The translations under genes and the position numbers were made by a program. Shown in pieces: positions 3,646 to 61,691 of a stretch of 64,000 nt of DNA. The notes beneath the pieces were generated by a model, which saw nothing but the letters and a program-made list of their open reading frames with translations, did not search any database and had not been told where the DNA came from. This stretch comes from Candidatus Uhrbacteria bacterium (GTDB lineage: Bacteria; Patescibacteriota; Patescibacteriia; UBA9934). The stretch spans positions 107,703 to 171,702 of the forward strand of contig CAWGHH010000002.1 in assembly GCA_963822405.1 (NCBI GenBank), in the 5' to 3' direction. The number at the start of each line of letters is the position of its first letter. Positions within the stretch are counted from its first letter, which is position 1.

Positions 3646-3660
3646 TGTCACCGTCGGCTA

Positions 3661-3775
3661 GAGGAGGTAGAGGATATAGAGGCTCGCCCGTAGGGCTACG
3701 CCCGAGGGATGGAATGGATTCTTTAAAGAATTGGATCAATCCTCTCTCTCCTCTATCTCCTCATGCCGGCATTTT
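3661..3775. repeat. GC-rich palindromic intergenic element, copy A, occupying the leader of cca
   Basis: Arm gaggaggtagaggatatagagg; core ctcgcccgtagggctacgcccgag; an AT palindrome attctttaaagaat; inverted arm cctctctctcctctatctcctc; then the perfect palindrome atgccggcat, just before ATG 3776. Near-identical copies at 33883-33945 and 56733-56760. Confidence 0.6.
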
Positions 3776-5218: not shown

Positions 5219-5386
5219 TTGTATGGAAAATCGCAAGAACCAATCCGACTCGTCTCTGAGAAAAGTGCGCGAGACGATAGCTTTGTTGAAGGCTATTTTG
5301 GCGAGGTGGGATTTGGATGACGCGCAATGGAAGATAAGAAAAGATTTAGATTCCTCCATACTTAGAGCTTCTCAAGTTCAGAATAA

Positions 5387-5704
5387 ATGATATACTTGTC
5401 ATATATGGAGAACGATATGACAGTTCGGGAGCTGGCCGAGATTCTTACTCATTTCGCGGAGAATATTGATCAGCGTTTTGATCGAATGGATCAACGCATG
5501 GACAGGATGGAGAATACTATAGTCACTAAGTCATACCTTGATGACAAGTTATTCGACAAAGAAAGTGACTCGGGTATGGCTTTGCGTAAAGAAGACAAAA
5601 AAGTTGACGCTGTTGTATTTAAACTCGAAGAAAAGAACATTATTAATAAACAAGAAGCAACGGTCATCACTGCTATGAGCCCGTTTGCTGTTTTACCGAA
5701 TTAA
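5387..5704 (+). CDS. Hypothetical protein
   Basis: 105-aa ORF in a gene-dense + strand run. No motif recognised. Confidence 0.3.
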   Translation: MIYLSYMENDMTVRELAEILTHFAENIDQRFDRMDQRMDRMENTIVTKSYLDDKLFDKESDSGMALRKEDKKVDAVVFKLEEKNIINKQEATVITAMSPFAVLPN

Positions 5705-6205
5705 ATGAAGTACTTCTTTGATGTTCGTGTAAGCGAGAAGATTCAGGCGTGGGGGAAGCCGCAATATAATATGTGGTACGTGTTTGCGGTTCATTTAATG
5801 TATGTTTACATTGCGAGTTGGATAATTTTTAGTGCGCTTGGTTGGCTGGTTTGGTGGACGGTGCCGGTCGTGGCGTTTTCAGCGTGGATTTTGACGTTGG
5901 GTACGCAGGTCATTGTGGCACGGGAGCGACCGAAATTCGAATCGACTACCGGGTATAAAATGTGGTGGAAGACTTACTCGTTGCCGAGCGGGCATGCGAC
6001 AATCTCCGCGGCCATAGCGACGGTGTTGCTTTTGACGACGCATTTTCCAAATTCAATTTGGTTGGTTGTTTTGGCGGTCGTTTATCTGATCATCGAAGTG
6101 CTAGTTGCTATCGGTCGAATCGTGGTCGGGGTGCATTATTTGGCTGACGTAATTGTCGGGTTTGTGCTGGGGATTGCGTTTGGGGTAATGTGGTCGGTGT
6201 TATGA
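5705..6205 (+). CDS. PAP2-family membrane phosphatase (undecaprenyl-diphosphatase / phosphatidate phosphatase type)
   Basis: 166 aa with several TM segments. PAP2 signature present: RERP...PSGH...GRIVVGVHYLADV (K/R-x6-RP, PSGH, SR-x5-H-x3-D). Confidence 0.75.
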   Translation: MKYFFDVRVSEKIQAWGKPQYNMWYVFAVHLMYVYIASWIIFSALGWLVWWTVPVVAFSAWILTLGTQVIVARERPKFESTTGYKMWWKTYSLPSGHATISAAIATVLLLTTHFPNSIWLVVLAVVYLIIEVLVAIGRIVVGVHYLADVIVGFVLGIAFGVMWSVL

Positions 6206-6936
6206 AAATTCAAGCAATCCTTCTCGCTGGTGGTCGAGGAACTAGACTAGCCCCAATAACCGACACGATGCCTAAACCGCTCGTGCCGATTTTGGGCAAG
6301 CCGATGATGAGTTACGTACTCGAACATCTGAAAGCGGCAGGGATTACTCGGGTGGCTATTTCGACAGCTTACCTCGGTCATTTAATCGAACAGACTTACG
6401 GCGATGGTTCCTTGATGGGCATGGAGTTGTCGTATATTGACGAACCGGAGCCGATGGGAACTGGCGGTTGGATGAAGCTGATCGACAAGTCGCAACTCGA
6501 CGAAAAGTTTATTGTGGCTAACGCTGATAATTTGTTTTGGATCGACGTCCCAGCCTTCTTGAAGAGACACGACGAAGTTGGCGGGATCGCGACAATCGCT
6601 GGCATTTCGATTCCGAGCGAGACTGCTAACAACTACGAGATTCTTGACGCGAACGACGAGAAGACTCGGTTAAACGCTTATGTTGATCGAAAAGATGCCG
6701 AGCCACTGCGAAATGCCTCACCGTCTGTGTTCGTTTCTTCGGGGTGGTATATTATGACACCGGCAGTGCTTGATATCGCGCCCGACGAGTTGCCACTATC
6801 GCACGAAACTCATGTTTGGCCAGCATTGTCGAAGTCTGGTCGCACGCTCGGGTTTTATCATGGTACTGAACCGTGGTTCGACTCGGGAACGCATGAGAGA
6901 CTTGCACGGGTTGAAGCGTTTTTGAAGAATCGTTGA
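6190..6936 (+). CDS. Sugar-phosphate nucleotidyltransferase (mannose-1-P guanylyltransferase / glucose-1-P thymidylyltransferase family)
   Basis: N-terminus MKIQAILLAGGRGTRLAPITDTMPKPLVPILGKPMM is the NTP-transferase G-rich loop. The likely start MKIQ at 6202 overlaps the PAP2 gene by 4 nt. Confidence 0.8.
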   Translation: MVGVMKIQAILLAGGRGTRLAPITDTMPKPLVPILGKPMMSYVLEHLKAAGITRVAISTAYLGHLIEQTYGDGSLMGMELSYIDEPEPMGTGGWMKLIDKSQLDEKFIVANADNLFWIDVPAFLKRHDEVGGIATIAGISIPSETANNYEILDANDEKTRLNAYVDRKDAEPLRNASPSVFVSSGWYIMTPAVLDIAPDELPLSHETHVWPALSKSGRTLGFYHGTEPWFDSGTHERLARVEAFLKNR

Positions 6937-6941
6937 TGGCT

Positions 6942-7308
6942 TCCACCCCGACGCCAGGAGGGGTCGCTTCCAGTATTCTATGGATGATCAAACATGCGGG
7001 GTATACATAATGGCTAACGATGGCAACCGGGTGATTTATGTTGGCATGAGCACGATGTTGCCGGAGCGCATTCAATCTCATAAAGACAAAATGATAGAGG
7101 GTTTTACGAAAAAATATAATTGTACCCGTTTGGTGTATTACGAAATTGTTCCGGATCGAGATTCGGCTCTTTATAGGGAGAAGGAGCTAAAGGGCTGGTC
7201 TAGAATGAAAAAGGCTGCACTAATTACTTCGACCAATCACGACTGGAAAGATTTGTTCGAAGAACTTATCATGCTCGCGTAGGAGCGACCCCTCCTGGCG
7301 TCGGGGTG
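6942..7308 (+). mobile_element. GIY-YIG nuclease gene (CDS 6980-7282) bracketed by a perfect 25-bp inverted repeat
   Basis: ccaccccgacgccaggaggggtcgc at 6944-6968 is the reverse complement of gcgacccctcctggcgtcggggtgg at 7286-7310. The left arm starts 6 nt after the upstream stop and the right arm 3 nt after the GIY-YIG stop. The 100-aa ORF carries GVYIMANDGNRVIYVGMSTMLPERIQSHKD (GIY-YIG / YhbQ-like). Confidence 0.6.
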
Positions 7309-27096: not shown

Positions 27097-27189
27097 AGTC
27101 GATTTCTCGTTCAGTCATCCTGAGCTTCGCGAAGGATCTGATTGGATAACTCCCATAATCTTGATGAATATACGCTATACTATTCGCAT

Positions 27190-30100
27190 ATGCGTCTAGT
27201 ATTTTTTCGTTGGAAAAGCAAGGTCGTAGCTGTCTTGGCGCTCGTCGCCATGCTTGGCCTCATGACTTCATCTCCTCAACCAGCCTTTGCAGCTGTTATC
27301 ACCTGGGATAACGGCGGGGGAGATGGACTTTGGAGTACTTGTACAAACTGGCTAGGAGACGTTTGTCCAGGCACCGGTGATATTGCTACATTTAATCCAG
27401 CCGTATCGGATACCTCGTCAACAATTGATACACTATTCGGTGATTTCTTTTCGGCCACTGTCGGTGGTGTAAATATAATGACGGGTTTTACTGGAACTAT
27501 CACTCAGGCTCGGGCGGTCAATATTGGGACTAGCGGTTGGTCGCAGGATGGAGGGACACTTAGTGGAAGTGCTGATCCAGCTCATTATTTTGCGGTGAAT
27601 AACGGAACCTTTACACTTTCTAACGGTACATTCACTGCTCCGTCGGCTACGGCTCTTGAGCTGAATACTGCGGCTTTTGTAATCACTGGCGGTACGTTTG
27701 ATCCGAATGGTGGAACGTTGGAGGTTGTGGGTACGGCCAGTTCAGTGGATGTTCTGAACTCCTTTACCTTTTCAAACCTGACTGTACAAATGACCGGTTC
27801 GTCGAATATTTTTACGATTGCGGCTGGTGACACACTTATTGTTCCAGGGACGTTTGCTTTTATGAACGGTAAGATTAACGGCGGAACGGTTGAAACTCAG
27901 GCTGCTATGAGTACGGGCAGTCACCCTGTTTACCCTGACGGTGGTACGGGGACCATCATTATTGACGGACCAGCCGTCAGAACAATTACTTTGTCGACCA
28001 ATGCAGCTGGCGGTGTTTCATTGCCGAATGTTGTTTTGAATGCTGCGGATGTAACCATATATTCAGGAGCGAACGCGGCATTTACCAGCCTAACAATTCA
28101 GGCCGGAGCTATTCTCACGGAAGCTCGTGCCAGAAGTTTCTCGGTAGCTGGTAACTATCTGCAAAGTGGTGGCTCCGTAGACCTGAGTAATCTCCTTAAC
28201 GTTAACCTTTCCACTTTTTCAGTTACTGGTTTATTGTCAGTGACTGGGGCGACAGCTAGCCTTATTTTGGGAGAGACAACTCAAGTAGCTGGAGGTTGGA
28301 CACATACCGGAACGTCTACGATTAACGTTGGAACTGGACTTGTGACCATGCGACTGACTTCCGATATTAATCTTACCGGCGATGCTACATTTAATGACCT
28401 CATCATCAATTTTTGCTCGCCGAGCTTAGTGAATCATGCTGTTACGGTTGCTACTGGAGTCAACAATCAATTCATCGTGAATGGCAAGGCTTGGATAGAG
28501 GGTTGCGGATTCAATAACTTACTATTTTTGCAGAGCAACTCAAGCGGAGTGCAGGCAGACGTTGATTTTGCTGGTCGTACCACTATGTCTCGCGTAGTCA
28601 TGAAGGACATTAACAATTACGACGCAACTCCTGTTCAGTGTGTCAATCGATGTATGGATCGGGGAGATAACGCAGGTGTTACTTTTCTTCCCGAGAATCG
28701 GTTTATTTCCGTCGGAGCTGCTTACGCCGCGGCCGGGAACGCAACCACTGATACTTCGGAAAGTGGCGATTCAGTTCGAGTTGATGTTGTTTTGCGGTTA
28801 GCACCAACAGCCACAGTGACTATTCCAGTTGCTACTTCTGATGCAACAGAAGCTGAGTCGAACGTTAGTTCGTTAATTTTTACCACGGACAACTGGAATG
28901 TTCCGCAGACCGTTACTGTGACAGGTATAGAAGATTTGATCGACGATGATAGTATCTCCTACTCGCTAAATATCGGTTCGGCCACTTCTACCGATTTGGG
29001 ATATGACGGCCTTTCGATTAGTGTTCCTTTGAAAAATCGTGACAATGATACGACCGAGGGAAGGGTCGATTTCCAGAATGGTGAAGACTTAAATATCCTG
29101 TCTGGAGACATTCTTTCAGATGGCAGCAGTTTGAAATATAAAAATTGGAGCTCTTCGGATGTATATGATTCCAACGGCGCACTTGCCACGGTTCATGACA
29201 ATGTGATTTTCGATCCAGATGCCAATATGTTCTGGGAAGCTGATCAATCCAATAATCGGCTTCTAAAATTTGATCCGACTGGCGTGATAGATGTTACAGC
29301 TCCAATTGCCTCGCCAGCCAGTCCTTCTAAAGTTGTATATGACTCAACTCATTTAGCTATTTGGACTACATTTTCTGGTAGCTCAAACATTGTTAAGCTG
29401 GAATCTTTAAACGGAACGCCTTTTGATACCGATCTAGCTACGAGCACCTATCCAGTTGGTGGCATACCGGCATTTATAGCGTACGACGCAACTCAAGATT
29501 CAGTTTGGATTTTGACTGATGCCTCAGTACTTGTAGAGATTGATGCGGCGACTGGTGGTGTGTTGCATTCGTACGCAACATTAGTAAATGCAAGTGAACT
29601 AGTTTATGACAGCGTGAATAATAAACTTTGGACATTGACCAGGCCATTTAATTCATATTATGTTCTCGAGAAGATTGATCCTTTGACCGGGCTGACAACT
29701 AATACGTATCCGCTCCCAACGGTGACTGGAGATATTCAGGGGACAGTTCGTTTAGCTTTTGATGTAACGAATAACATAGTTTGGGTTTCAGATGCTCCGA
29801 GCAATGAGAGTGACGGTGCGGCTTGGGATAGCGTGGATTTTTTGATGGGTATTAATGGAGTTGATGGGACAGTTCGAGGAGTCTACGATTCAGACTTTTT
29901 AAGCCTAGGTTACCCAGTGGTGAATGAATATGATCAATTGGTGCATTACGGCTTACATTCATTCGCCATCACCGATGGGAGTCGACAAGGTGTGATAGGT
30001 GCTGAGATTGAAGCTGTTTCCGGTACTGGAGAAATGTGGAGTAATGGTAATTTGTACTATCACACGCTCTATTGGCCAAATGCTTATACAACAGCTACAA

Positions 30101-32733
30101 CAGAATATGGTGGTTTACTTCCTACCACTCTTTGGAGCACGTTAACGGAATATCCAAATGCAGAAATTACCAACGGTTCCTCTCTTTACACTTTTTCATT
30201 TAATAGTGGTTCAAGCTACTACATTTGGACCGGTTCAGTCTGGCGCGTGATCGCTTCTAGCTTAGCGGCTGATCATGGCAATGGAGACGGGGATTGGTAT
30301 TATAGAGATTCTGCCAACGGGTGGACATTCGACGCTACGGCAACTGCAACTAGTGCTATTCAGAACGCCATTCGTTACGCCAACGGAAGCAATGATATGA
30401 CTGGTGCAACAGCCCAGTCCTTGGCGCCCGGTACTTGGGAAAGTGCGCCCGGTTGGGTTGCATTGACTCCATTTCTTGCCTCTACCTCTTACTACACTCC
30501 AGACACGCTTATCTACACGGATACTTGGGCTAGTTTAACTGATGTTACGCTGAACGAAACTCTGGCTGGGCAAGGAGCTTATTACGCATTTTCATTTACG
30601 GACAGTGAAAAATTCTCCATTTGGACCGGTTCCGCTTGGCGAGTCATTGCCAGTTCTCGGACGGCTGATCACGGAGGAGCTGAATGGACCTGGTATTTCC
30701 GTGATGGTGCTAACGGCTGGGTAAATACTTTTGATACAAGTGGCTTTGACGACGCCATTCATTCTTTGAATTATGCAATTAGCGGTGTTGGATTCACGGG
30801 AGTAGTCCAAAATCAAATGACGGGCACTACGGTCAATGCATTGACCCAGGCTAACTTGAACGCGGCCGGTGGTTGGACTTTAGCTATGCCAATAGATGTG
30901 AGCGCCACACTTAAGACAACAAGCAGGCTCGTCACACCGTCCGTTCAGGATGCGACCTTCTCGTTTACTACTGGTTCGACTCCTGGAGTAGCAATTTCTG
31001 AGACCGCGAGTTCAACGGATGTCACAGAAGGCGGGGCGACGGACACGTATTCCGTTGTTTTAGATTCTTTGCCAACCGATAGTGTTGTAGTCACGGCCAC
31101 AGGCAACGCGGATGTTTCCGTTTCTGGACCATTGACCTTTACCGTTGGCAACTGGAACGTTCCGCAGGACATAACTGTTACCGCAGTTAATGATTCTATA
31201 GACGAGGTAAGTCTTGAGAATGCAACTATTACTCACGCTGCGGCTTCAACCGATGTTAATTATGATAGTGGTCTCTCGGTGGCTAGCGTAACGGCACACG
31301 TGACTGATAATGATGTTGCCGGTATTACGGTTGGCGCGATTTCTGGCCATACAACTGAGGCGCTCGTTACAGCAACATTTACTGTGGTTCTTGATACGCA
31401 GCCAACCGCTGATGTTTCAATCGGCGTCACGTCTGATGATACTTCTGAGGGCACGGTCTCACCGGCTTCACTCACGTTCACAAGCGGTAATTGGTCAACT
31501 CCTCAAACTGTTACCGCGAGTGGTGTAAATGATTCTCCGGTTGACGGCGATATCACATATCACATTGTTCTTGCGGCTGCTACTTCAGCCGACACGTTTT
31601 ATAGCGGAATAAACCCAGCTGACGTAACCGTGATAAATGATGATAACGACGTTCCATCGTCTGGAGGTAGTTCGTTTGTGCAGTTGCCATCGCCTACGTC
31701 TCCAGATTCTCATGCAGTTTCTGCGCCTACTTGTACGTCGGCCAGCTTGGTTAATGTGCTCATGTCGGCTCATAACGCAACTTCGTACATGCTCTCTATC
31801 GATGGGGCATTTGATACGGAATCGTGGCTCACATTCACACCCAACGTAAATGATTCAACTTGGGTAATCCCAACCATGAATCTTGGCGTGATGTTGCCGG
31901 AACCAGATGGGGAATACCTTATCTCTGTTCGGTATCGATCATCATCAGGAAACGTTTCATCGACTGTTTCAACTCAGGTACAGCGGGATATCGCTGGCGG
32001 TTGCGTGAATCCTTCCGTCATTCCTACGCCAGCAGAGCCAGCACCAACCGAAAATCAACCAACTCCAGGTGAGCCGGGTACTGGCACTACAATAATCGAA
32101 TATCAACCAGGATGTTTAAACATCAGCCGTCCAAAAGACCTAACAAGAAACATTATTGGTCGAGGTCTCTCGCCAATTACCGGCAAAGAAGAAGACATTA
32201 TTCAGCCTCTCCCGGGTGATTACATGCGCGCCCAGAATATCGACACTGTCTACTGTATTGATGCCTCGTCACGTCGACGACCATTTATTGACGAGACCAC
32301 TTATTTTACCTTCGAGCGTTCATTTGACCCGGTAGTTTTTGTGACAGACGCTACTCTCCCTACTCTGCAAATGGGTCCGCCAATGTTGCCTAAGGCCGGA
32401 GTGACATTAGTTAAATTCCGTTCCTCCCCAATTGTTTATCGAGTAATTGAAAACCCAGGAGATACAGATCATCGTGTGCTCAGGCCTCTCGCAAGTGAAG
32501 CTGTGGCCAAACTTAACTACGGCGAAAACTGGTCAGACTATATTATTGACGTAGACGAAAGTCTGAATGCCTGGTTCATTATCGGCGAGCCCATCACTGG
32601 CCTAGAACAAGAAAGCCTCAGCACCTTCCGTCCCCGAGATCTCCTCAATGAAGTCAGTAAATCAGTCGAGCAACAGCTCTCAAACTTCACTAACTTCCTC
32701 GGCGCAATTTACAATCGTATATTTGCGCACTAG
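27190..32733 (+). CDS. Very large secreted surface/adhesin-like protein (1847 aa from M17) with β-propeller-like and Ig/Calx-β-like tandem repeats and a conserved C-terminal domain
   Basis: Signal peptide MRLVFFRWKSKVVAVLALVAMLGLMTSSPQPAFA. Blade-like ~40-aa repeats around residues 680-900 (VYDS...W motifs). A duplicated ~95-aa unit (Y[TA]FSF...IWTGS[VA]WRVIASS..ADHG...W[YT][YF]RD[SG]ANGW). Three consecutive ~110-aa repeats (TVTA[TV]NDS..D) near residues 1290-1620. The C-terminal 125 aa are homologous to the 21243-21764 frame. Confidence 0.7.
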   Translation: MRLVFFRWKSKVVAVLALVAMLGLMTSSPQPAFAAVITWDNGGGDGLWSTCTNWLGDVCPGTGDIATFNPAVSDTSSTIDTLFGDFFSATVGGVNIMTGFTGTITQARAVNIGTSGWSQDGGTLSGSADPAHYFAVNNGTFTLSNGTFTAPSATALELNTAAFVITGGTFDPNGGTLEVVGTASSVDVLNSFTFSNLTVQMTGSSNIFTIAAGDTLIVPGTFAFMNGKINGGTVETQAAMSTGSHPVYPDGGTGTIIIDGPAVRTITLSTNAAGGVSLPNVVLNAADVTIYSGANAAFTSLTIQAGAILTEARARSFSVAGNYLQSGGSVDLSNLLNVNLSTFSVTGLLSVTGATASLILGETTQVAGGWTHTGTSTINVGTGLVTMRLTSDINLTGDATFNDLIINFCSPSLVNHAVTVATGVNNQFIVNGKAWIEGCGFNNLLFLQSNSSGVQADVDFAGRTTMSRVVMKDINNYDATPVQCVNRCMDRGDNAGVTFLPENRFISVGAAYAAAGNATTDTSESGDSVRVDVVLRLAPTATVTIPVATSDATEAESNVSSLIFTTDNWNVPQTVTVTGIEDLIDDDSISYSLNIGSATSTDLGYDGLSISVPLKNRDNDTTEGRVDFQNGEDLNILSGDILSDGSSLKYKNWSSSDVYDSNGALATVHDNVIFDPDANMFWEADQSNNRLLKFDPTGVIDVTAPIASPASPSKVVYDSTHLAIWTTFSGSSNIVKLESLNGTPFDTDLATSTYPVGGIPAFIAYDATQDSVWILTDASVLVEIDAATGGVLHSYATLVNASELVYDSVNNKLWTLTRPFNSYYVLEKIDPLTGLTTNTYPLPTVTGDIQGTVRLAFDVTNNIVWVSDAPSNESDGAAWDSVDFLMGINGVDGTVRGVYDSDFLSLGYPVVNEYDQLVHYGLHSFAITDGSRQGVIGAEIEAVSGTGEMWSNGNLYYHTLYWPNAYTTATTEYGGLLPTTLWSTLTEYPNAEITNGSSLYTFSFNSGSSYYIWTGSVWRVIASSLAADHGNGDGDWYYRDSANGWTFDATATATSAIQNAIRYANGSNDMTGATAQSLAPGTWESAPGWVALTPFLASTSYYTPDTLIYTDTWASLTDVTLNETLAGQGAYYAFSFTDSEKFSIWTGSAWRVIASSRTADHGGAEWTWYFRDGANGWVNTFDTSGFDDAIHSLNYAISGVGFTGVVQNQMTGTTVNALTQANLNAAGGWTLAMPIDVSATLKTTSRLVTPSVQDATFSFTTGSTPGVAISETASSTDVTEGGATDTYSVVLDSLPTDSVVVTATGNADVSVSGPLTFTVGNWNVPQDITVTAVNDSIDEVSLENATITHAAASTDVNYDSGLSVASVTAHVTDNDVAGITVGAISGHTTEALVTATFTVVLDTQPTADVSIGVTSDDTSEGTVSPASLTFTSGNWSTPQTVTASGVNDSPVDGDITYHIVLAAATSADTFYSGINPADVTVINDDNDVPSSGGSSFVQLPSPTSPDSHAVSAPTCTSASLVNVLMSAHNATSYMLSIDGAFDTESWLTFTPNVNDSTWVIPTMNLGVMLPEPDGEYLISVRYRSSSGNVSSTVSTQVQRDIAGGCVNPSVIPTPAEPAPTENQPTPGEPGTGTTIIEYQPGCLNISRPKDLTRNIIGRGLSPITGKEEDIIQPLPGDYMRAQNIDTVYCIDASSRRRPFIDETTYFTFERSFDPVVFVTDATLPTLQMGPPMLPKAGVTLVKFRSSPIVYRVIENPGDTDHRVLRPLASEAVAKLNYGENWSDYIIDVDESLNAWFIIGEPITGLEQESLSTFRPRDLLNEVSKSVEQQLSNFTNFLGAIYNRIFAH

Positions 32734-33960: not shown

Positions 33961-34536
33961 ATGAGCAACGAAGTCGTCTTGGACATTGAAACGCAGAATA
34001 CTTTTGATGAAGTTGGCGGATATTTTACGGATAAACTTAAGGTTTCATTGGTTGGCGTGTACTTTTACGAAACTGATACTTACGAGTCATTCCTGGAGCC
34101 AGATTTGCCAAAGCTATTTGCAAGACTTGAAAAGTCTGGTCGAATTATTGGCTACAATTCAATTGGTTTCGATATGCCGGTACTGAATAATTACTACACG
34201 GGCGATCTTTTGAATTTGCCCCAGCTCGACATGCTTGCTCACATCAACAAAGCACTTGGCTATCGAATTAAACTAGACGCTGTAGGTCATGCAACTGTTG
34301 GCATCGAAAAGTCCGCTCATGGTTTGCAGGCAGTTGCTTGGTGGAAAGAGGGGAACATTGATGCTATCCGCGAGTATTGTTTGCAGGACGTGAAAGTGAC
34401 CAAAGAAGTGTACGAATTCGGCAAAAAGAACGGCTACTTGTTGTTCGACGACCGCAAAGGTGAACGCCAAGCCATCCCAATCAACTTTGCCGAAGTAAAA
34501 CCAACGACGACGGTTAATATGACCCTTGGATTTTAA
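33961..34536 (+). CDS. 3'-5' exonuclease, DEDD (DnaQ-like) superfamily
   Basis: Exo I VVLDIETQN, Exo II IGYNSIGFDMPVL, Exo III YCLQDVKVT (Y-x3-D). Confidence 0.5.
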   Translation: MSNEVVLDIETQNTFDEVGGYFTDKLKVSLVGVYFYETDTYESFLEPDLPKLFARLEKSGRIIGYNSIGFDMPVLNNYYTGDLLNLPQLDMLAHINKALGYRIKLDAVGHATVGIEKSAHGLQAVAWWKEGNIDAIREYCLQDVKVTKEVYEFGKKNGYLLFDDRKGERQAIPINFAEVKPTTTVNMTLGF

Positions 34537-35299
34537 TTACATGCGCAAATTATTCGTTTTCATTCTTGCTCTCTTATTTCTGTCCGTTGTTTGTGGATCA
34601 ATTTTACTCGTGGGCGAGCAACTGCCAAGGGGTTTAACTCGACGAACACTGAATATTGACGATCGTCATATTGTGTTAGACGTCATGAATCTCACCGCGC
34701 AGAACCTGTCCATGAGCCTTCTGAACGAACCGTCAAACGCGCGGAACGTTAAAGAATGGCGAGCGTCCACGAACGCCGATCTCGTGATTAACGGCACTTA
34801 CTTTGACGAAAAGAATACGCCAACTGGTTTTTATTCTTTAAACGGTTCAGCCAGTGCCACGCCTTGGCCAAGGGCTGAGGATCAGCTGGCAACCGCTAGT
34901 TATTCTTTCTTGGTCGAGGTAGTGGACGGTAAGCTCAAGCTTTCGTACTTGCCAGACAATCCACGCACCGAACCGTCAGTGAACGGTTTTTTGTCATTTC
35001 CAACTTTAATCGCTGATGGCAAGTCGCTCGTCACCGCGGATACTGGCTTGCGTGCCCAACGCACCATGTTGGCCCAGGATGCTTCGGGTGGCGTCTACTT
35101 GATCACTATTGAAAAGGGCAGCGTATCCTTGTTTGAGGCCGCTACTTGGCTTCTCGCGCAACCCGAAGGCTTCGTCCTCGCGGGGAACCTCGATGGTGGA
35201 CCGTCGACTGGCATTTCATACACAGATGGCAAGCGAGTTTTTGACGAATTTTCGGCTCCGATTCCAAATGTTATTATAGGTCAATCGTATGGAAAATAA
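34526..35299 (+). CDS. Phosphodiester glycosidase-like (DUF2233-like) secreted/membrane-anchored protein, tentative
   Basis: N-terminal TM/signal segment. Motifs LVINGTYFDEKNTPTGFY and LAGNLDGGPSTGISY resemble the phosphodiester glycosidase family. Judged from memory of the family consensus only. Confidence 0.4.
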   Translation: MDFNYMRKLFVFILALLFLSVVCGSILLVGEQLPRGLTRRTLNIDDRHIVLDVMNLTAQNLSMSLLNEPSNARNVKEWRASTNADLVINGTYFDEKNTPTGFYSLNGSASATPWPRAEDQLATASYSFLVEVVDGKLKLSYLPDNPRTEPSVNGFLSFPTLIADGKSLVTADTGLRAQRTMLAQDASGGVYLITIEKGSVSLFEAATWLLAQPEGFVLAGNLDGGPSTGISYTDGKRVFDEFSAPIPNVIIGQSYGK

Positions 35300-37376
35300 T
35301 GGTTATAGAGAGCTTAAGATGAATCCCGAGGCTAAAGATTTTAGAAAGTCATTAGCCGATTCTTTGATTAGGGCTAGGAACTATGATGGGTCGGAGGCTT
35401 CTTACGAAAGCCTGATGTCGTCTCTGGAGGTTTTAGAGGAAACAATTGAAACATCCCCATCTGTTGCTGGTCATACGGTTCGGGAGAAGGAGATTGACGC
35501 AGCGTTTAGATTTGCTCCCATTAGACCAAAAGAAATTAATGATGTTTTAGAAATAGCTGAGCAAGCGGGTCGACGCCGACTCCATAAAAGCTTGCAAGCG
35601 TCTCTTGAAGATGGCTCTGATATACCAAATGGAGCTTTTGTTATTCACAGACTAGATGGGGTTATTCTCCCGCCCGGTAATATTCCTGGGCCGATAGCCA
35701 CGAATGAGTCGGGTCATGGGTTTGACGCTGTTTCCTTTGAACCTAGGCTAGAAGAAATAATAAGATTATTGACTCAAATTCAGATATTTTCTGACGATGT
35801 TTTGATCAGCATCGGGGAAGTATCGAAAGATGTAGTACGTAGCAAGAGTTATGCAGTGATAGAAATTCCTAGGCTTAATAAAACAATCCTAGTTTGTGAT
35901 GAAGTTGGCGAGGCGACCTTTATAGTTAAATCTTTGGCGTCAGCGGCAAACTTCTTGTCCACTAGAAAGCAAGACCTAACCGAACATTTTGGCGAAGACA
36001 AGGTTGTTAGAATAATTAGAAATCAAGCCTGGGAGAAAAATATTTTAGCAGTTTTGAATGATGAAGAACTGAGATCCGGCAAGCCTCTCAATAAAGTTGA
36101 TGTTAAAGAATACGAGCTTGATCAAGTGCGAGCGGCGGTAATTAAGCAGTGTCCGCTTGATGAATGGTTGCACATGAACCAGACCGAGCGTGAGCAGAAG
36201 AGAATTGACGGCCTTAGCTTACGTATCATTGCAACTATTTTTAATGTTCCGAAGCCCAAAAATGAGTATTTAAAAATAACTCATTTCAATTTAGGAAAAG
36301 AAATATTCGGTCCAGATCAAAAACTAATTAAGGAAATTGACCTGTTAACTAGAAGTGCAGAAGATTGGAAAGCTAGCGTAAAGAAAAAACTACCAACCGC
36401 TGAGGAGTGGTTGCGCATCAGTGGTCCTAAAAGGCGAGAACTCGATTTCGATGGAAAGAAGATGTCTGCTCTTCAGGGGGCATTTGGAATTCAAAATAGC
36501 GTACTATCGAGCACAAAGGCCTTTGTTCAATTGGGAGCCGAGATTTATGGCCAGGATGATCCGGCTATTAAATCTGCTTACACCGCGGCCATCTTGAAGG
36601 AGTCGGCTCTAGAACGAACTCCGGAAGAATGGCGACAGGTTATCAGGGGCAGGATGGATGCCGGTGTGTGGCTTCAAAAAATGAGTGAGTCCGGTTTAGA
36701 GCTCAATATCGACGGCATCGGGATGCGAAAATTGGCAAAAAAATTTAGTGTTCAAATCGGTTCGCCTAAGGTCACTATGTTTAAATTAGGTTTCAATATA
36801 TACGGACTAGATAATGAGCAACTATCTACGGCGTATGAATTGTTCAATAAAGAGCAAGAGAGAATTACGTGGTCAAAGGAGCAGTGGAGGGAGCATTTAT
36901 TGATTAAGTGTCCTGATTTTGCGACTTGGATTGAAGATGGAAAAAATCTAAAAGTATTTAATAGCAAAGTTGGATATTTGCCGTGGATAGCTAAAAGTTT
37001 TGGTTTTCCGTGTGACGGAATTCATGATCGAAACACTTTTTCCTTGTTATCAAAAGAGCTCTACGGAGTAGATCCTAGGAATACGGAATCAGCCGTGGTT
37101 TGGCGAAAGAAGGCCGATGCGGAGACCTTGAATCGAACAACAGATGATTGGCGAGCCCGAATTAAGCAGGAATTTCCTACGGCGCAAGACTGGTTGGGTA
37201 TGACAAAAGAGCAGAAACGTCATTTTTATGTCGATAAACTGAGCATGCGAAGATTATGGAGAGCATTCGGCCTTAAAGATATTCCTTCGGACAGTAACAT
37301 CCATACGAACGCTAATTTTTTGGTTCTCGGTGAACAGATTTACGGAGTTGATGATCCAACCATTGTCAGCCGCTAA
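35289..37376 (+). CDS. Hypothetical 695-aa protein with five ~90-aa tandem repeats
   Basis: From ~residue 270 there are five repeats. Each begins with a Trp-containing basic segment (VRAAVIKQCPLDEWL / DWKASVKKKLPTAEEWL / EWRQVIRGRMDAGVWL / EQWREHLLIKCPDFATWI / DWRARIKQEFPTAQDWL). Each ends with a [FL]xLGxEIYGxD[DP] motif (FNLGKEIFGPDQ, FVQLGAEIYGQDDP, FKLGFNIYGLDNE, LLSKELYGVDPR, LVLGEQIYGVDDP). Confidence 0.55.
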   Translation: MENNGYRELKMNPEAKDFRKSLADSLIRARNYDGSEASYESLMSSLEVLEETIETSPSVAGHTVREKEIDAAFRFAPIRPKEINDVLEIAEQAGRRRLHKSLQASLEDGSDIPNGAFVIHRLDGVILPPGNIPGPIATNESGHGFDAVSFEPRLEEIIRLLTQIQIFSDDVLISIGEVSKDVVRSKSYAVIEIPRLNKTILVCDEVGEATFIVKSLASAANFLSTRKQDLTEHFGEDKVVRIIRNQAWEKNILAVLNDEELRSGKPLNKVDVKEYELDQVRAAVIKQCPLDEWLHMNQTEREQKRIDGLSLRIIATIFNVPKPKNEYLKITHFNLGKEIFGPDQKLIKEIDLLTRSAEDWKASVKKKLPTAEEWLRISGPKRRELDFDGKKMSALQGAFGIQNSVLSSTKAFVQLGAEIYGQDDPAIKSAYTAAILKESALERTPEEWRQVIRGRMDAGVWLQKMSESGLELNIDGIGMRKLAKKFSVQIGSPKVTMFKLGFNIYGLDNEQLSTAYELFNKEQERITWSKEQWREHLLIKCPDFATWIEDGKNLKVFNSKVGYLPWIAKSFGFPCDGIHDRNTFSLLSKELYGVDPRNTESAVVWRKKADAETLNRTTDDWRARIKQEFPTAQDWLGMTKEQKRHFYVDKLSMRRLWRAFGLKDIPSDSNIHTNANFLVLGEQIYGVDDPTIVSR

Positions 37377-37538: not shown

Positions 37539-38540
37539 TTGAATATGCAACAGACAACGCTTGAATCGTTTGCGATCGTTGAGAAAGATAAACCGTCTAC
37601 GTTGTTGATTCCTAGGAAGGTCTATAGACCGTTTGAATATCCTCAGTACTACGAGTACTTTCAGAAACAGAACCAGGCTCACTGGCTGCCAACTGAAGTG
37701 CCAATGGAGAGTGACATCGCAGATTACAGATTCCGGTTAAGCAAAGAAGAATCGAACTTGATTATTCAAATTCTTCGTTTCTTTACTCAGGGAGATATTG
37801 AGGTAAACAACAATTACAACCAGAAACTGATTCCTGCGTTTCCTAAGCCGGAGATTAAGATGATGTTGTCGGCTTTTGCAGCCATGGAAAGTGTGCACGT
37901 GTGGGCTTACTCGTACTTGAATGATTCGCTCGGTTTACCAGAAAAAGAATACTCGGCCTTTCTGGACTTCTCGTCGATGAAAGCTAAGTACGACTATATT
38001 CAGAAGTTCGACGTTCATAATGTTGAAGAATTGGCTACTAATCTGGCGGTGTTTGGTGGGTTCATGGAAGGCGTGAGTTTATTCTCGTCCTTTGCTATTT
38101 TGATGAACTATCCGCGCATGGGCAAGATGAAAGGCGTCGGCCAAATTGTCACCTGGAGTATTCGTGATGAAAGCTTGCATAGTAAGGGCGTTTGTCATTT
38201 GTTCCGTGACTTGATCTCTGAGAATAAATATCTGTGGACGCCGGCTTTCAAGCAGACTTTGTTTGATGCTTGTGATGACATGGTGAAGCTTGAAGATGCG
38301 TTTATTGATACATGTTTTGATATGGGGCCAGTACCGGGATTAACGCCGGCGCAGGTGAAGCAGTACATTCGGTTTATTGCTGATCGTCGACTGAATGATT
38401 TGGGCCTCGACGCCTTGTACGAAGTGACAAACCCGCTCGAATGGTTGGACACCATGATAAACGCCAAAGAGCACGCTAACTTTTTTGAAAGTCGGGCGAC
38501 GGAATACTCGAAGGGAACCGTACTTGAAGATTGGACGTAG
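37539..38540 (+). CDS. nrdB: Class I ribonucleotide reductase small (beta, R2) subunit
   Basis: Di-iron ligand motifs MESVHVWAY and IRDESLHS (ExxH) within a ferritin-like fold, with a conserved aromatic C-terminal tail. Immediately upstream of nrdA. Confidence 0.85.
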   Translation: MNMQQTTLESFAIVEKDKPSTLLIPRKVYRPFEYPQYYEYFQKQNQAHWLPTEVPMESDIADYRFRLSKEESNLIIQILRFFTQGDIEVNNNYNQKLIPAFPKPEIKMMLSAFAAMESVHVWAYSYLNDSLGLPEKEYSAFLDFSSMKAKYDYIQKFDVHNVEELATNLAVFGGFMEGVSLFSSFAILMNYPRMGKMKGVGQIVTWSIRDESLHSKGVCHLFRDLISENKYLWTPAFKQTLFDACDDMVKLEDAFIDTCFDMGPVPGLTPAQVKQYIRFIADRRLNDLGLDALYEVTNPLEWLDTMINAKEHANFFESRATEYSKGTVLEDWT

Positions 38541-38563
38541 ACCATAAAAAATCTATAAAAGCT

Positions 38564-40468
38564 ATGAACTACCCTAGTGTAATTGATGCTCTCTCGGCGA
38601 ACGATCTGGTGGCTGCTCGTGATATGTTGTTGGCCGAGATTTTAGCCTCGACTAAAGGTAAAGGAAGCTGGGATTCTGAATATTACTTGCCGGAGTGTAA
38701 GGAGATTCAGCAGTCTCTCGTCCTCGTACCAGAACGCAATCAGAACTTCACCTATTTCGGTCTTGAGAATTTCCGAGATCGTTATGCGTTGCGTAATATT
38801 GCCGGAGAGGTGATTGAGGATCCGCAAATGTTCTTTGCGCGTATTGCTACTGGGCAAGCGCGAGGCGATAAGGAGCTGGCGCAGTACCTGTATGACATCA
38901 TGAGTAAGAACTGGTATTTGCCGTCTTCGCCTACGCTCATGAACATCGGAACCAAGAAGGGTTTGCCGATTTCATGTTTCTTAAACACGGTACCGGACGA
39001 TCTTGGCGGCATCTTTGATATTTATCGAGAGAATGCGTTCCTTGCTAAGTACGGGGGAGGAATCGGCACCGATTGGTCGCAGCTCCGTGGCCAAAACGCG
39101 CCGCTTCTTTCGTCGGGTCTTAGATCGAGTGGTGTCATTCCGTTTTTGAAGATCATGGACTCTGAAACTATTGCGATTGCGCGTAACGGTGTGCGTCGTG
39201 GTGCGGCCGCGGCTTATTTGCGAATCGATCACCCAGATATTGAAGATTTCCTTGAGATGCGTAAGCCGGGTGGCGATCAGGACCGTAAGTGCATGAACAT
39301 TAATAACGGAATCGTCATCACTGACGAGTTCATGCAGGCCGTTGAAGCCGGTAAGCCGTACAATCTTGTTGACCCACATTCAAAACTAGTGACAAGGGAA
39401 CTCGACGCTTTGACCATGTGGCGCAGATTGCTGTCTATGCGAGCGGAAACAGGGGAGCCATATCTGATTTTCATCGATACCGTGAATCGAGCTCGACCAC
39501 AGCACCACAAAGACCTCGGACTAATCGTTCGCCAAAGTAATTTGTGTACAGAAATTGTTTTGCCAACGGATGAGAAGCGCACGGCCGTTTGTTGCTTGGG
39601 CTCGATCAACCTAGAACGTTGGGACGAGTTCGCTGATCAGATTGACGCTGTTGCGTACGCTTGCGTGAAGGCACTCGACAATAATTTGGAGACTTTCATC
39701 GAACAGGCTAACGCGAAAGAATATACTAAGGCGTTAAATTCAGTCAGGAGCGAACGCTCTATTGGCTTTGGGGTGATGGGCTATCATGGATATTTGATGA
39801 GCAAGGGCATTCCGTTTGAGTCAGTTCAAGCTCGACTGATCAACAAACAGATTTTTGAGAAGTTCGGCACAGCCGCTCGTGAAGCGTCAAAGAAGTTGGG
39901 CGAGGAGCGCGGACTTCCACTTGATGGCGGAACCCAACGAAATAGTTATGTGACTAGCATCCAGCCAACTGCGTCGACCGCGTTCTTGTGCGGTGAAGCT
40001 ACACCGGCGATCGAACCAATTGCGGGTAATGCATACTTGCAAAAGACATTGTCGGGCAGCTTCCTTGTAAAGAACAAGCATCTGGAAAGATTCCTAGAAA
40101 CAAAAGGCCAGAACACGGTTGATGTCTGGAAGAGAGTGATTGCGGACAAGGGGAGCGTTGAAAATCTCAGCTTCCTGACCCCAGAAGAGAAGGCTATTTT
40201 CCGCACTGGTTATGAGATGAACATGCGGGAAATTGTTCAACAGGCAGCTGACAGACAGCCGTATATCGACCAAGCTCAGTCACTAAATGTGTTCTTCCAA
40301 ACTCCGGTTTCGGGTAAATACATGAACGAGGTGCACATGATGGCTTGGAAACTTGGCCTCAAGTCCCTTTACTATCTTCGCTCGGCTTCACCAATTAGTG
40401 CTGATTCTATTGGGATTGCTACAGAAAAGCGCGACGTTGCCAATGAAGAATGTGCCGTTTGCCAATAA
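38564..40468 (+). CDS. nrdA: Class I ribonucleotide reductase large (alpha, R1) subunit, without ATP-cone
   Basis: Motifs PTLMNIGT, SCFL, SNLCTEIVLPT, and a C-terminal Cys pair ECAVCQ. No N-terminal ATP-cone is visible. Likely start MNYPS at 38564; the tabulated ORF starts at 38531, overlapping nrdB. Confidence 0.88.
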   Translation: MNYPSVIDALSANDLVAARDMLLAEILASTKGKGSWDSEYYLPECKEIQQSLVLVPERNQNFTYFGLENFRDRYALRNIAGEVIEDPQMFFARIATGQARGDKELAQYLYDIMSKNWYLPSSPTLMNIGTKKGLPISCFLNTVPDDLGGIFDIYRENAFLAKYGGGIGTDWSQLRGQNAPLLSSGLRSSGVIPFLKIMDSETIAIARNGVRRGAAAAYLRIDHPDIEDFLEMRKPGGDQDRKCMNINNGIVITDEFMQAVEAGKPYNLVDPHSKLVTRELDALTMWRRLLSMRAETGEPYLIFIDTVNRARPQHHKDLGLIVRQSNLCTEIVLPTDEKRTAVCCLGSINLERWDEFADQIDAVAYACVKALDNNLETFIEQANAKEYTKALNSVRSERSIGFGVMGYHGYLMSKGIPFESVQARLINKQIFEKFGTAAREASKKLGEERGLPLDGGTQRNSYVTSIQPTASTAFLCGEATPAIEPIAGNAYLQKTLSGSFLVKNKHLERFLETKGQNTVDVWKRVIADKGSVENLSFLTPEEKAIFRTGYEMNMREIVQQAADRQPYIDQAQSLNVFFQTPVSGKYMNEVHMMAWKLGLKSLYYLRSASPISADSIGIATEKRDVANEECAVCQ

Positions 40469-40585
40469 TCAATAAACAAGGTATTACTGACGCCTTATTG
40501 TTTGGCTTGTGGAAAACAAGTTTGCTGGGAAGAGATGATGGGTATAATCAGGCCGTTATCTCTTTTTGGTTTTTCTTCTATCTCT

Positions 40586-41014
40586 ATGAAAATATCAGCC
40601 GCACTTGAAGTTTTGGGTAATGACAGTCCAATTGTTGTTCGCGATAAAACCTTCGTTCCACGCGGGGTAGAATCTGTTTCACTTGAGACCGGTGAAAAAG
40701 TATACTGGGTACCAAGCGTTGAGGGCGTTTGGTTGTCTCTTGACCCAGAGGGGGAGGAGATTGTTCTCTTTGAGGATATTGACGAAGAAATTGAGGTTGA
40801 GGATGACATTGTTGTTTACGGTGGCGAGGATCATGAATTGGCCTATGAGGGTACCGCGACTATGGCTGCTGAAGATGGTGGTAAGACTATGGTCTTTAAA
40901 GACTACGCATCTTCTGACGGCGAGATCATTCGCATCATGGAAGATGAAACAACTGGAGACAAGTCTTCAGCCTACGGTGTTAAATTGACAGAGGAAGATT
41001 TGCAGGAGGCTTAG
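40586..41014 (+). CDS. Hypothetical acidic protein
   Basis: ~140 aa, rich in Asp/Glu (EDIDEEIEVEDDIVVYGGEDHELAYEG). No motif recognised. Sits between nrdA and ftsI. Confidence 0.3.
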   Translation: MKISAALEVLGNDSPIVVRDKTFVPRGVESVSLETGEKVYWVPSVEGVWLSLDPEGEEIVLFEDIDEEIEVEDDIVVYGGEDHELAYEGTATMAAEDGGKTMVFKDYASSDGEIIRIMEDETTGDKSSAYGVKLTEEDLQEA

Positions 41015-59504: not shown

Positions 59505-59705
59505 AAGTGGGCGGAAGTATATAGGAAGGATTGAAATTAGTCAAAGTTTTTGGCACCCTTTTTGACAAACCCTAGCGTTTTTTGTAAGGTCACCCGTTCC
59601 TTGAATGTTTATCGAACACATTCCGGGTCCAAGTTAGCGGGGAGAAAGTTCGAGACAGTGAAAGTGACTAACATCTATTGGCGAATTCTCGCCAAGGAGG
59701 ACGTG

Positions 59706-61691
59706 ATGAAGGTTCAATTGTTTGCACTCATGGGCCTGATGCTCATGGGATCGTGTGGCCCTGCCGGCGTGAGCCTGCAGGAAGACTCCGGCGACAGCGC
59801 CGTGTCGAGCGGCTTCTACGCGCTCGACGGGACCGAAGAAGCTCGCTTGAGCTGTAACGGTACGATCGAGGTCCACAACTTCGACCAGGACTCGTTCGGT
59901 CGGGAATACTGCGTGGCGCTCGGTACCTCGAGCCTCCCGTTCTTCGCGACCACCGTCGGCGACTGCAACGACGGCGACCCGCTCATCTACCCCGGCGCCC
60001 CAGACCCTACGGTCGATGGCGTCGATCAGAACTGCGACGACGTCGACGGCCCTTTGCAGAACGGAACCTTCTACAGGGACCTCGATGGCGACGGGTACGG
60101 CAAAGCGTCGAGCGGCACGAGCACGGTTCAGGGTACCGGCTTCGTGACGAGCAACACGGACTGCGATGACACGAGCAACCTCGATCACCCGAACGCGGCC
60201 GAGGCCTGCGACGGCATCGACAACGACTGCGACCACCTCGTGGACAACGGTGCGCCGGGGAGCGCGACGTGGTACGGGGACGCCGACAAGGACAACTACG
60301 GGATCTCCACGCAGACCGTGGTGGCGTGCATGAAGCCGGCGAACTACGCGGTTCAGGCCGGTGATTGCAAGGACGACGACATCACGATCCACCCCGGCGC
60401 GGCGGAAACCTGCGACGGCAAGGACAACAACTGCGACAACCTGGTGGACAACGGCGCAACGGGCGCCAGCACCTGGTACGCGGATGTGGACGGTGACACG
60501 GCCGGCAGTAGCGTGCACGGTACCGTCACGGCGTGCGCCCAGCCCCAGGGGTTCGCCGCGAGCAACAACGACTGCGACGACAACAACTTCGCGCGGACGC
60601 CCGGCAAGACCGAGGTCTGCGACGCCATCGACAACGACTGCGACAACGTCGTGGACGAGGGCGCGGGCAGCGTGTACTTCGCGGACAAGGACGGCGATAC
60701 GATCGGCAGTTCGGTGTACGGCACCACCACGGCGTGCGCCCAGCCCACGGGGTACGTCACGACGAGCACCGATTGCGACGACAACAACTTCGCGCGGACG
60801 CCCGGCAAGGCCGAGATCTGCGACGGCGTCGACAACAACTGCAACGGTGTCGTGGATGATGGTGCGACTGGCATCATCATCTGGTACCTGGACGTGGACG
60901 GCGACAGCTACGGCGTGAACGGGCTCATCTCGAACGCCTGTGCCAAGCCGAGCAACTACGCCATCCAGGGCGGTGACTGCAACGACGCGAACGGAGCGAT
61001 CAAGCCCGGCGCGTCCGAGTCCTGCAACGGCGTGGACGACAACTGCAACGGGCAGGTCGACGAAACGTGCAACTCCGTCACCTACTACAAGGACAACGAC
61101 AACGACGGTCACGGGAGAGCGAGTAGCGGAACGAGCACCTCTTCGGGCAACGGGTTCGTCACGAGCAGTGATGACTGCAACGACGGCGACGCCCAGACCT
61201 ACCCCGGCGCGCCTGAGACCCGGGTCAACGTCGACAGCAACTGCGACGGCACGGCTTACACCGGCTCGAACAGCGGTTCGTGTCCGACCGGCCAGAGCAA
61301 GTTTGCGGGTTCGTTCGTCGGCTCGGGCACGGGAAACATCATCCTGTCCGATTCGTACTTCGACATCCGGGACACCGTGAACGGCGTCAACTACCTGCCT
61401 TGGGCTCACGTCAGCACCGGTACGCCTTCGGGCATGACGGTGTCGACGAGCGGCAACAAGGTGACGTTCGCGTATGACGTGTGTCTGCCGGACACCGTGA
61501 TCAAGACGGTGTCGTTTACCTACTACTACTCGAACGACTCCCAGGTTCGCTACAGCTGTGAAGGCGGCGCGAACAACACGCCGACGAACTTCACTGGCGT
61601 GTGGACCATGACGAGCGACGGCTTCTCGACCCCCGTGTCGAAGGCGCTCAGCGGAAACCCCGTGACGGGCTGCGTCGGCACCTACTACTAG
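59706..61691 (+). CDS. Secreted Cys-rich repeat protein with seven 'putative metal-binding' (Myxococcus MopE-type) motifs; compositionally foreign (~65% GC)
   Basis: Start MKVQLFALMGLMLMGSCGP with SD aaggagga. Seven repeats of DC[DNK]D....[YH]PGA.E.CDG.DN[DN]C[DN]..VD[DE]G. These alternate with WY.D.DGD.[YI]G loops (WYGDADKDNYG, WYADVDGDTAG, YFADKDGDTIG, WYLDVDGDSYG, YYKDNDNDGHG). GC content is visibly far above the flanks. A 714-aa antisense ORF (59634-61778) is a high-GC shadow. Confidence 0.7.
   Translation: MKVQLFALMGLMLMGSCGPAGVSLQEDSGDSAVSSGFYALDGTEEARLSCNGTIEVHNFDQDSFGREYCVALGTSSLPFFATTVGDCNDGDPLIYPGAPDPTVDGVDQNCDDVDGPLQNGTFYRDLDGDGYGKASSGTSTVQGTGFVTSNTDCDDTSNLDHPNAAEACDGIDNDCDHLVDNGAPGSATWYGDADKDNYGISTQTVVACMKPANYAVQAGDCKDDDITIHPGAAETCDGKDNNCDNLVDNGATGASTWYADVDGDTAGSSVHGTVTACAQPQGFAASNNDCDDNNFARTPGKTEVCDAIDNDCDNVVDEGAGSVYFADKDGDTIGSSVYGTTTACAQPTGYVTTSTDCDDNNFARTPGKAEICDGVDNNCNGVVDDGATGIIIWYLDVDGDSYGVNGLISNACAKPSNYAIQGGDCNDANGAIKPGASESCNGVDDNCNGQVDETCNSVTYYKDNDNDGHGRASSGTSTSSGNGFVTSSDDCNDGDAQTYPGAPETRVNVDSNCDGTAYTGSNSGSCPTGQSKFAGSFVGSGTGNIILSDSYFDIRDTVNGVNYLPWAHVSTGTPSGMTVSTSGNKVTFAYDVCLPDTVIKTVSFTYYYSNDSQVRYSCEGGANNTPTNFTGVWTMTSDGFSTPVSKALSGNPVTGCVGTYY

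Follow-up and report, generated by a model that had tools for sequence, protein, structure and literature searches.

The window analysed here is a 64,000-nucleotide (nt) stretch of a Candidatus Uhrbacteria genome (assembly GCA_963822405.1, contig CAWGHH010000002.1, positions 107,703 to 171,702 of the forward strand). Its plus strand carries at 35289..37376 a complete gene for a 695-amino-acid (aa) protein that consists of an N-terminal domain (N-domain) and five repeats. The gene begins with an ATG in the open reading frame (ORF) list; the encoded N-terminus, M-E-N-N-G-Y-R-E-L-K-M-N-P-E-A-K-D-F-R, can be aligned with the N-termini of homologues, for example P0024 and P0034, which start with the same Y-R-E-L-K, so this start codon is credible.

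The repeats were examined with a profile hidden Markov model (HMM) for cross-validation, which was built solely from the repeats of four other proteins, 17 units in all, and then run on the window protein. It recognizes five domains with a total of 203.7 bits, whereas no score above 10.8 bits was obtained from 1000 shuffled versions of the repeat region; this bears out the five tandem units read from the letters alone in the original prediction. Repeat 1 (aa 273-344, 36105..36320) scores 41.4 bits, repeat 2 (aa 355-425, 36351..36563), the best-conserved unit, 58.9 bits, repeat 3 (aa 442-510, 36612..36818) 36.1 bits, and repeat 5 (aa 616-690, 37134..37358) 50.3 bits; repeat 4 (aa 530-595, 36876..37073), in which G-x-G is missing and L-S replaces L-G, is the most degenerate unit with 11.7 bits (i-Evalue 9.4e-6). 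All five are encoded on the plus strand. The [IL][FY]G motifs lie at aa 339, 419, 504, 591 and 684, at a spacing of 80-93 aa and each preceded by Trp motifs, in the places where the prediction had put them. The modules are about 72-75 residues each, helical and joined by short linkers. Their pairwise identity is 18-38%, and the repeats are old: self-BLASTP of the protein gave no internal match and Tandem Repeats Finder detected no DNA-level tandem repeat in the gene, both because the units have diverged too far.

The 599 repeat units collected from the family give the approximate consensus ..E-x-W/L-R..I...Y-P-T-P-E-x-W..M...E-K/R..F-K-I-x-G-x-G-L-x-A-I-A..F-G-V-x-G-N-P.....H-L-E-L-G-R-K-I-Y-G-E-D-D. 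The module had been called Trp/Gly-rich, a description that holds for its conserved positions and fails as composition, the repeat region of the window protein containing 3.1% W and 6.1% G. Likewise, of the two Trp positions assigned to the unit, the second (E-W-L) is 87% conserved across the family, whereas the first is W, L or I and is W in just 40% of units. The AlphaFold2 (AF2) model of a single unit (repeat 2, modelled as aa 349-426), a check that the prediction had called for, folds into four main helices and a short helical turn with a predicted local distance difference test score (pLDDT) of 82.7; since one unit is confidently folded in isolation, the model points to an array of individual domains in a row and away from a solenoid. 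The window protein is split in charge, with an isoelectric point (pI) of 9.0 for the repeat region and 5.1 for the N-domain. In the family the repeats have a median pI of 8.3, with conserved basic residues at profile columns 9, 30 and 34. The nearest relative of a unit sits in the same protein in 52% of cases, versus 0.7% by chance, which indicates that arrays grow and shrink by internal duplication, as expected of an array that works by avidity.

The N-domain (aa 1-272, 35289..36104) is predicted with confidence by AF2 (pLDDT 90.5, predicted template modelling score 0.86) from an alignment of 37 sequences, from which its conservation was also derived. It comprises a helical-bundle half (aa 4-108, 35298..35612) and an alpha/beta core (aa 118-257, 35640..36059), again on the plus strand. 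Seven positions are invariant (R184, Y188, P194, E208, K227, W248 and L256), and those conserved in at least 90% of sequences include R153, D169, D170, E192, C203 and T210; nearly all invariant and near-invariant residues, and nearly all invariant polar ones, fall in the alpha/beta core. The N-domain, with Arg184, Tyr188, Glu208 and Lys227, probably forms a defined catalytic or ligand-binding site. The PD-(D/E)xK, Toprim, GIY-YIG and nucleotidyltransferase motifs were considered for the core and rejected by inspection, as the conserved residues are in the wrong order and at the wrong spacing for them.

A word-index search returned four relatives only (26-30% identity, 451-871 aa), whose alignment shows a strongly conserved N-terminal region of about 270 aa followed by 2, 4, 5 or 6 repeats; two alignment-based word-index searches, apparently seeded from the first sequence only, added no new relatives. 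Exhaustive HMMER with the same alignment recovered 1173 representative clusters (50% identity) at E <=1e-3, 639 at E 1e-10 and 237 at E 1e-30, and the window protein scores 955 bits against the family profile. The family is therefore large yet poorly sampled by annotation. The motifs that define it, LPPG, F-E-P-R, IF-x-DD, S-Y-x-x-x-E-I-P-R and L-V-C-D-Q-V-G-E-A-T-F, are all present in the window protein; the definition further includes, after these N-domain motifs, at least one repeat unit of the form W...G-x-G..LA..FG...LG..IYG, of which the window protein has five. Architectures were counted in the best 151 of the 1173 representatives: the N-domain occurs in 134, and 133 of those carry repeats, 1-11 per protein and most often 5.

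Matches in genomes come mostly from metagenome-assembled genomes (MAGs) of Patescibacteria, also known as CPR, including Uhrbacteria, Peribacteria, Peregrinibacteria, Gracilibacteria and Microgenomates; the closest are Uhrbacteria, with N-domain identities of 39-41%, and a few come from Bdellovibrionota or 'delta' MAGs. As to the lineage restriction that the prediction had asked about, a bias towards CPR/Patescibacteria is evident, and with 1173 clusters the family is not a small one. No viral relatives with the N-domain pattern were found. The gene is not always single-copy, since a Peribacteria MAG (L015) has two tandem paralogues with 5 and 3 repeats and MAG CAZKXN01 carries the family on two of its contigs (L007 and L010). 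The extra length of P0104, a long relative encoded at L026, is made up of further divergent repeats only. A Deltaproteobacteria MAG contains an ORF of at least 1391 aa (L033, 674-4846, plus strand) with the alpha/beta core of the N-domain only, at aa 929-1123; the core is preceded by a long region with Gly-rich hydrophobic segments and without a Pfam match, and followed by two variant repeats (F-A-T-C-L-A-N-I-G-V-G...).

Among the same 151 representatives, all eight long relatives that lack the N-domain (P0097, P0108, P0121, P0122, P0126, P0136, P0147 and P0149) have ResIII and Helicase_C at the N-terminus, then a linker of about 70-100 aa, then 5-9 repeats. Their helicases form one coherent DEAH/ResIII superfamily 2 (SF2) family with the motifs QPTGAGKT, DEAH, TATP and QGxGR; the nearest named relatives are XPB, RadD, HsdR and a type IV restriction helicase, all of them far below curated cut-offs. 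The repeat array is a portable module, found joined to the N-domain in one architecture and to a DEAH/ResIII SF2 motor in the other. When metagenomes were scanned starting from the helicase alignment, 80 generic helicases came back, none with repeats. In the helicase-fused proteins the linker ahead of the first repeat (K-R-P-L..E-A-L..N-G-E...D-L, about aa 479-522 of P0147) loosely resembles aa 151-192 of the N-domain (E-P-R-L.E-L-I.L-L..G-I-F.D-D-L), but profile comparison of the N-domain with these proteins by hhalign was not significant (E 0.34, probability 0.2%). Two observations, two cases only, hint at a link to transcription. P0108 ends in a sigma-70-like C-terminal region (aa 1237-1395; TIGR02989, E 1.7e-5), and at locus L034 a helicase that shares the core family but carries another, helix-turn-helix (HTH)-like repeat at its C-terminus is divergent from a 570-aa RpoD-like sigma gene, the pair lying at 2099-3811 (minus strand) and 3843-6989 (plus strand).

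Neither domain is represented in current libraries of families and structures (Pfam, NCBIfam, PHROGs, PADLOC and PDB), in agreement with the view that the repeat was undescribed. The window protein has only two Pfam matches, both at chance level, no NCBIfam match, none of note in PHROGs, and no match to the anti-phage defence models of PADLOC; the helicase-fused relatives match in PADLOC only the generic helicase parts of the PbeA and type IV restriction models. Sequence searches of the PDB, made with the window protein and three profiles, yielded nothing significant. TPR, Sel1, PPR, ankyrin and LysM, from which the repeat had been set apart, were matched neither by the window protein at E <=1 nor by 22 single repeats at E <=10, and they are absent from the 25 most recurrent Pfam families (E <=0.1) of 50 members scanned singly.

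In that scan the only Pfam families to recur were CTE_SPB4/DUF4217 (PF13959; 6 of 50 members) and DUF2481 (5 of 50). CTE_SPB4 is the extension of DEAD-box RNA helicases of the Spb4/Has1/Dbp4/Dbp7 type, and the likeness is twofold: a centre of about 30 residues in the repeat, F-x-V-x-G-x-G..LA..FG-x-x-G-x-P, aligns to positions 20-51 of the 52 in the model, and the repeats also occur C-terminal to SF2 cores. The repeat differs from it in having extra helices on both sides, in being tandemly iterated, and in its partner helicases, which are DEAH/ResIII and not DEAD-box, and the window protein itself lacks a helicase altogether. Scores remain below the Pfam gathering cut-off of 27 bits for the window protein (13.7 bits, E 0.063), P0003 (26.6 bits) and P0014 (25.3 bits), and P0007 attains its 47.1 bits only when its 11 repeats are added up, none of the stretches passing by itself. 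A consensus drawn from the helicase-type repeats matches model positions 21-50 with E 0.047, the whole-family consensus has no match, and PDB chains with the extension were not recovered by the repeat profiles at E <=10. Membership in CTE_SPB4 was accordingly rejected, the signal being below the cut-off, with no domain passing alone and no position C-terminal to a DEAD-box core; at the sequence level it is best described as a motif-level resemblance.

These matches bear on the possibility that the protein is an RNA-binding or ribosome-associated factor whose repeat is a distant relative of the CTE_SPB4 extension of rRNA-processing helicases. Besides the recurrence of this family, the summed score of P0007 and the helicase-type consensus, gene order speaks for it to some degree, as individual relatives adjoin housekeeping genes: a pseudouridine synthase (PseudoU_synth_2) together with a tRNA synthetase, or HflX, with LepA nearby, and P0002 and its close relatives lie between scpA-scpB and rluB, an arrangement confined to one lineage. 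Translation genes dominate small CPR genomes, however, so that such adjacency carries little weight; the fused helicases are nearest to DNA enzymes, no single repeat passes the CTE_SPB4 cut-off by itself, and DUF4217 itself is of unknown function (PMC9960301). We regard a role in RNA or ribosome biology as doubtful.

Structural comparison places the repeat unit, weakly, mostly near TetR-type HTH DNA-binding domains. No Pfam HTH family passes its threshold for the repeats, and unlike the TetR-type HTH the repeat has an extended G-x-G segment at the place of the HTH turn. It is not a canonical helix-hairpin-helix (HhH) or (HhH)2 domain. The family also differs from the C-terminal DNA-binding domain of TnsE (PDB 5d16), which has unrelated conserved residues and is absent from the Foldseek list. 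A weak match of the repeat to the C-terminal tail of RNase H2B was dismissed as chance-level (E 0.58), the matching stretch of the repeat lying inside a predicted helix.

The gene stands in a tightly packed group on the plus strand of the window (33961-37376). Upstream lie a gene for an RNase H-fold (DEDD-type) 3'-5' exonuclease at 33961..34536 (PF13482, RNase_H_2, E 1.5e-8) and one for a phosphodiester glycosidase, NAGPA, with an N-terminal hydrophobic segment at 34526..35299 (PF09992, E 2.4e-17). The exonuclease and NAGPA ORFs overlap by 11 nt, if NAGPA begins at its first possible start codon, and the 3' end of the NAGPA gene shares 11 nt with the start of the repeat-protein gene. Downstream, after a gap of 162 nt, follow nrdB (37539-38540, plus strand; Ribonuc_red_sm, E 7.7e-74) and nrdA (38531-40468, plus strand; Ribonuc_red_lgC, E 3.4e-123). 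Pfam thus confirms the identities given to these neighbours in the original prediction; the functional link that it implied did not hold up. tBLASTn with the exonuclease, NAGPA and nrdBA found these neighbours at none of the related loci, and clustering of the neighbouring ORFs gave no family in more than 4 of 33 loci. Relatives do not keep this arrangement, and the close packing is therefore more suggestive of genome compaction than of a functional operon; the products of the group are a mix of predicted cytoplasmic and extracytoplasmic proteins. A promoter and terminator scan gave no signal above shuffle level.

Other genes of the window were recorded in passing. An acidic 170-aa ORF without a Pfam match lies at 40502-41014 (plus strand), between nrdA and a PBP2-like gene. 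About 1.2 kb upstream of the exonuclease, NAGPA and repeat-protein genes, the plus-strand gene at 27142-32733 encodes a giant protein of 1863 aa that has a hydrophobic signal-like segment at its N-terminus and repeated modules resembling those of surface proteins. Further downstream, the gene at 59550-61691 (plus strand) encodes a secreted protein of 713 aa with about ten tandem Cys/Asp-rich units (C-D-G-I/V-D-N-D/N-C-D..V-D) and causes a local spike in GC content (0.616 versus about 0.47 elsewhere).

The overlap of the repeat-protein gene with the end of the NAGPA gene, whose product bears the hydrophobic segment, is what could suggest binding of the cell wall or of an extracellular polymer, one of two roles first envisaged for the repeats. 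The protein itself points elsewhere: it is hydrophilic at the N-terminus (maximum Kyte-Doolittle value over 19 residues, 1.29), no signal peptide, lipobox or membrane segment was found in it, and from its sequence it is predicted to be cytoplasmic. LysM, SLH, PG_binding or similar families are not matched, the repeats are fused to cytoplasmic helicase cores, and NAGPA is a neighbour at 0 of 33 related loci. A role at the cell wall is close to refuted. The other envisaged role, binding of nucleic acid, is favoured, because the same array follows SF2 helicase cores, in all eight of the long relatives without the N-domain, and is basic; DNA is favoured over RNA because of the type of helicase to which it is fused.

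We tentatively propose that the array is a multivalent nucleic-acid tether, more likely for DNA, and that the N-domain serves as effector and has a defined active or binding site. According to this proposal, the basic five-module array would bind nucleic acid, most likely DNA, multivalently and with low specificity, and would thereby hold the acidic N-domain on its substrate; in the sister architecture the array would hold a DEAH/ResIII SF2 translocase instead. Besides the helicase fusions and the basic charge, the conservation of the repeats across proteins, the confident fold of one unit in isolation, the internal duplication, the weak TetR-type structural neighbours and the lack of a signal peptide or membrane segment speak for it. 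Several findings weigh against it: about 21% of family repeats are acidic (pI <6), the most recurrent sequence resemblance is to an RNA-helicase extension, Foldseek of the N-domain against the PDB gave no match, no recognizable catalytic motif was found in the N-domain, and the gene neighbourhoods provide no functional support.

The acidic fifth of the repeats would suit a different arrangement, in which the repeats do not bind nucleic acid at all and serve as protein-protein adaptors that dock the N-domain or the helicase on a shared partner (RNA polymerase/sigma, SMC-ScpAB or the replisome, for example). Protein contacts are often made through small helical modules, the sigma-like end of P0108 and the sigma gene beside the L034 helicase would fit a polymerase partner, and the location of P0002 and its close relatives beside scpB would fit SMC-ScpAB. 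Yet the sigma link consists of two cases and the scpAB link of one lineage, the array is basic overall, and a copy number of 1-11 with duplication within proteins is more in keeping with avidity for a polymer than with attachment to one discrete partner. Such an adaptor function is in our judgement unlikely, if somewhat less so than the ribosomal one.

A multivalent DNA tether of this kind would recall topoisomerase V of Methanopyrus, whose N-terminal catalytic domain precedes a long row of tandem (HhH)2 DNA-binding domains. By analogy, the family would share with it an N-terminal effector (about 270 aa) in which Tyr, Arg, Lys and Glu are conserved, and a variable tandem array of small, basic, helical modules that contain a Gly hairpin. 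It is unlike topoisomerase V in that the repeat is not a canonical HhH, the N-domain has no known catalytic activity and homology was not detected. Carried further, the analogy would make the N-domain an unrecognized nucleic-acid-processing enzyme fold held on its substrate by a tandem DNA-binding array that evolved anew, with Tyr188 acting together with Arg184, Glu208 and Lys227 in, for example, a covalent-intermediate DNA cleavage and rejoining or a nuclease reaction. We consider this improbable; if true, it would represent a Patescibacteria-centred analogue of the topoisomerase V design whose array has been reused by a dedicated SF2 translocase.

The protein belongs to a domain family that is new but follows a familiar design principle, and we regard it as a solid lead rather than a surprise. 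Its two confidently folding domains without a library match define more than 1000 clusters at 50% identity, concentrated in Patescibacteria, a group whose biology is largely inferred from annotation, and both merit family definitions that would replace the label 'hypothetical'. That the array is repeatedly found fused to a dedicated SF2 helicase makes it a testable candidate for a new nucleic-acid tethering module and may offer a route to the function of the N-domain.

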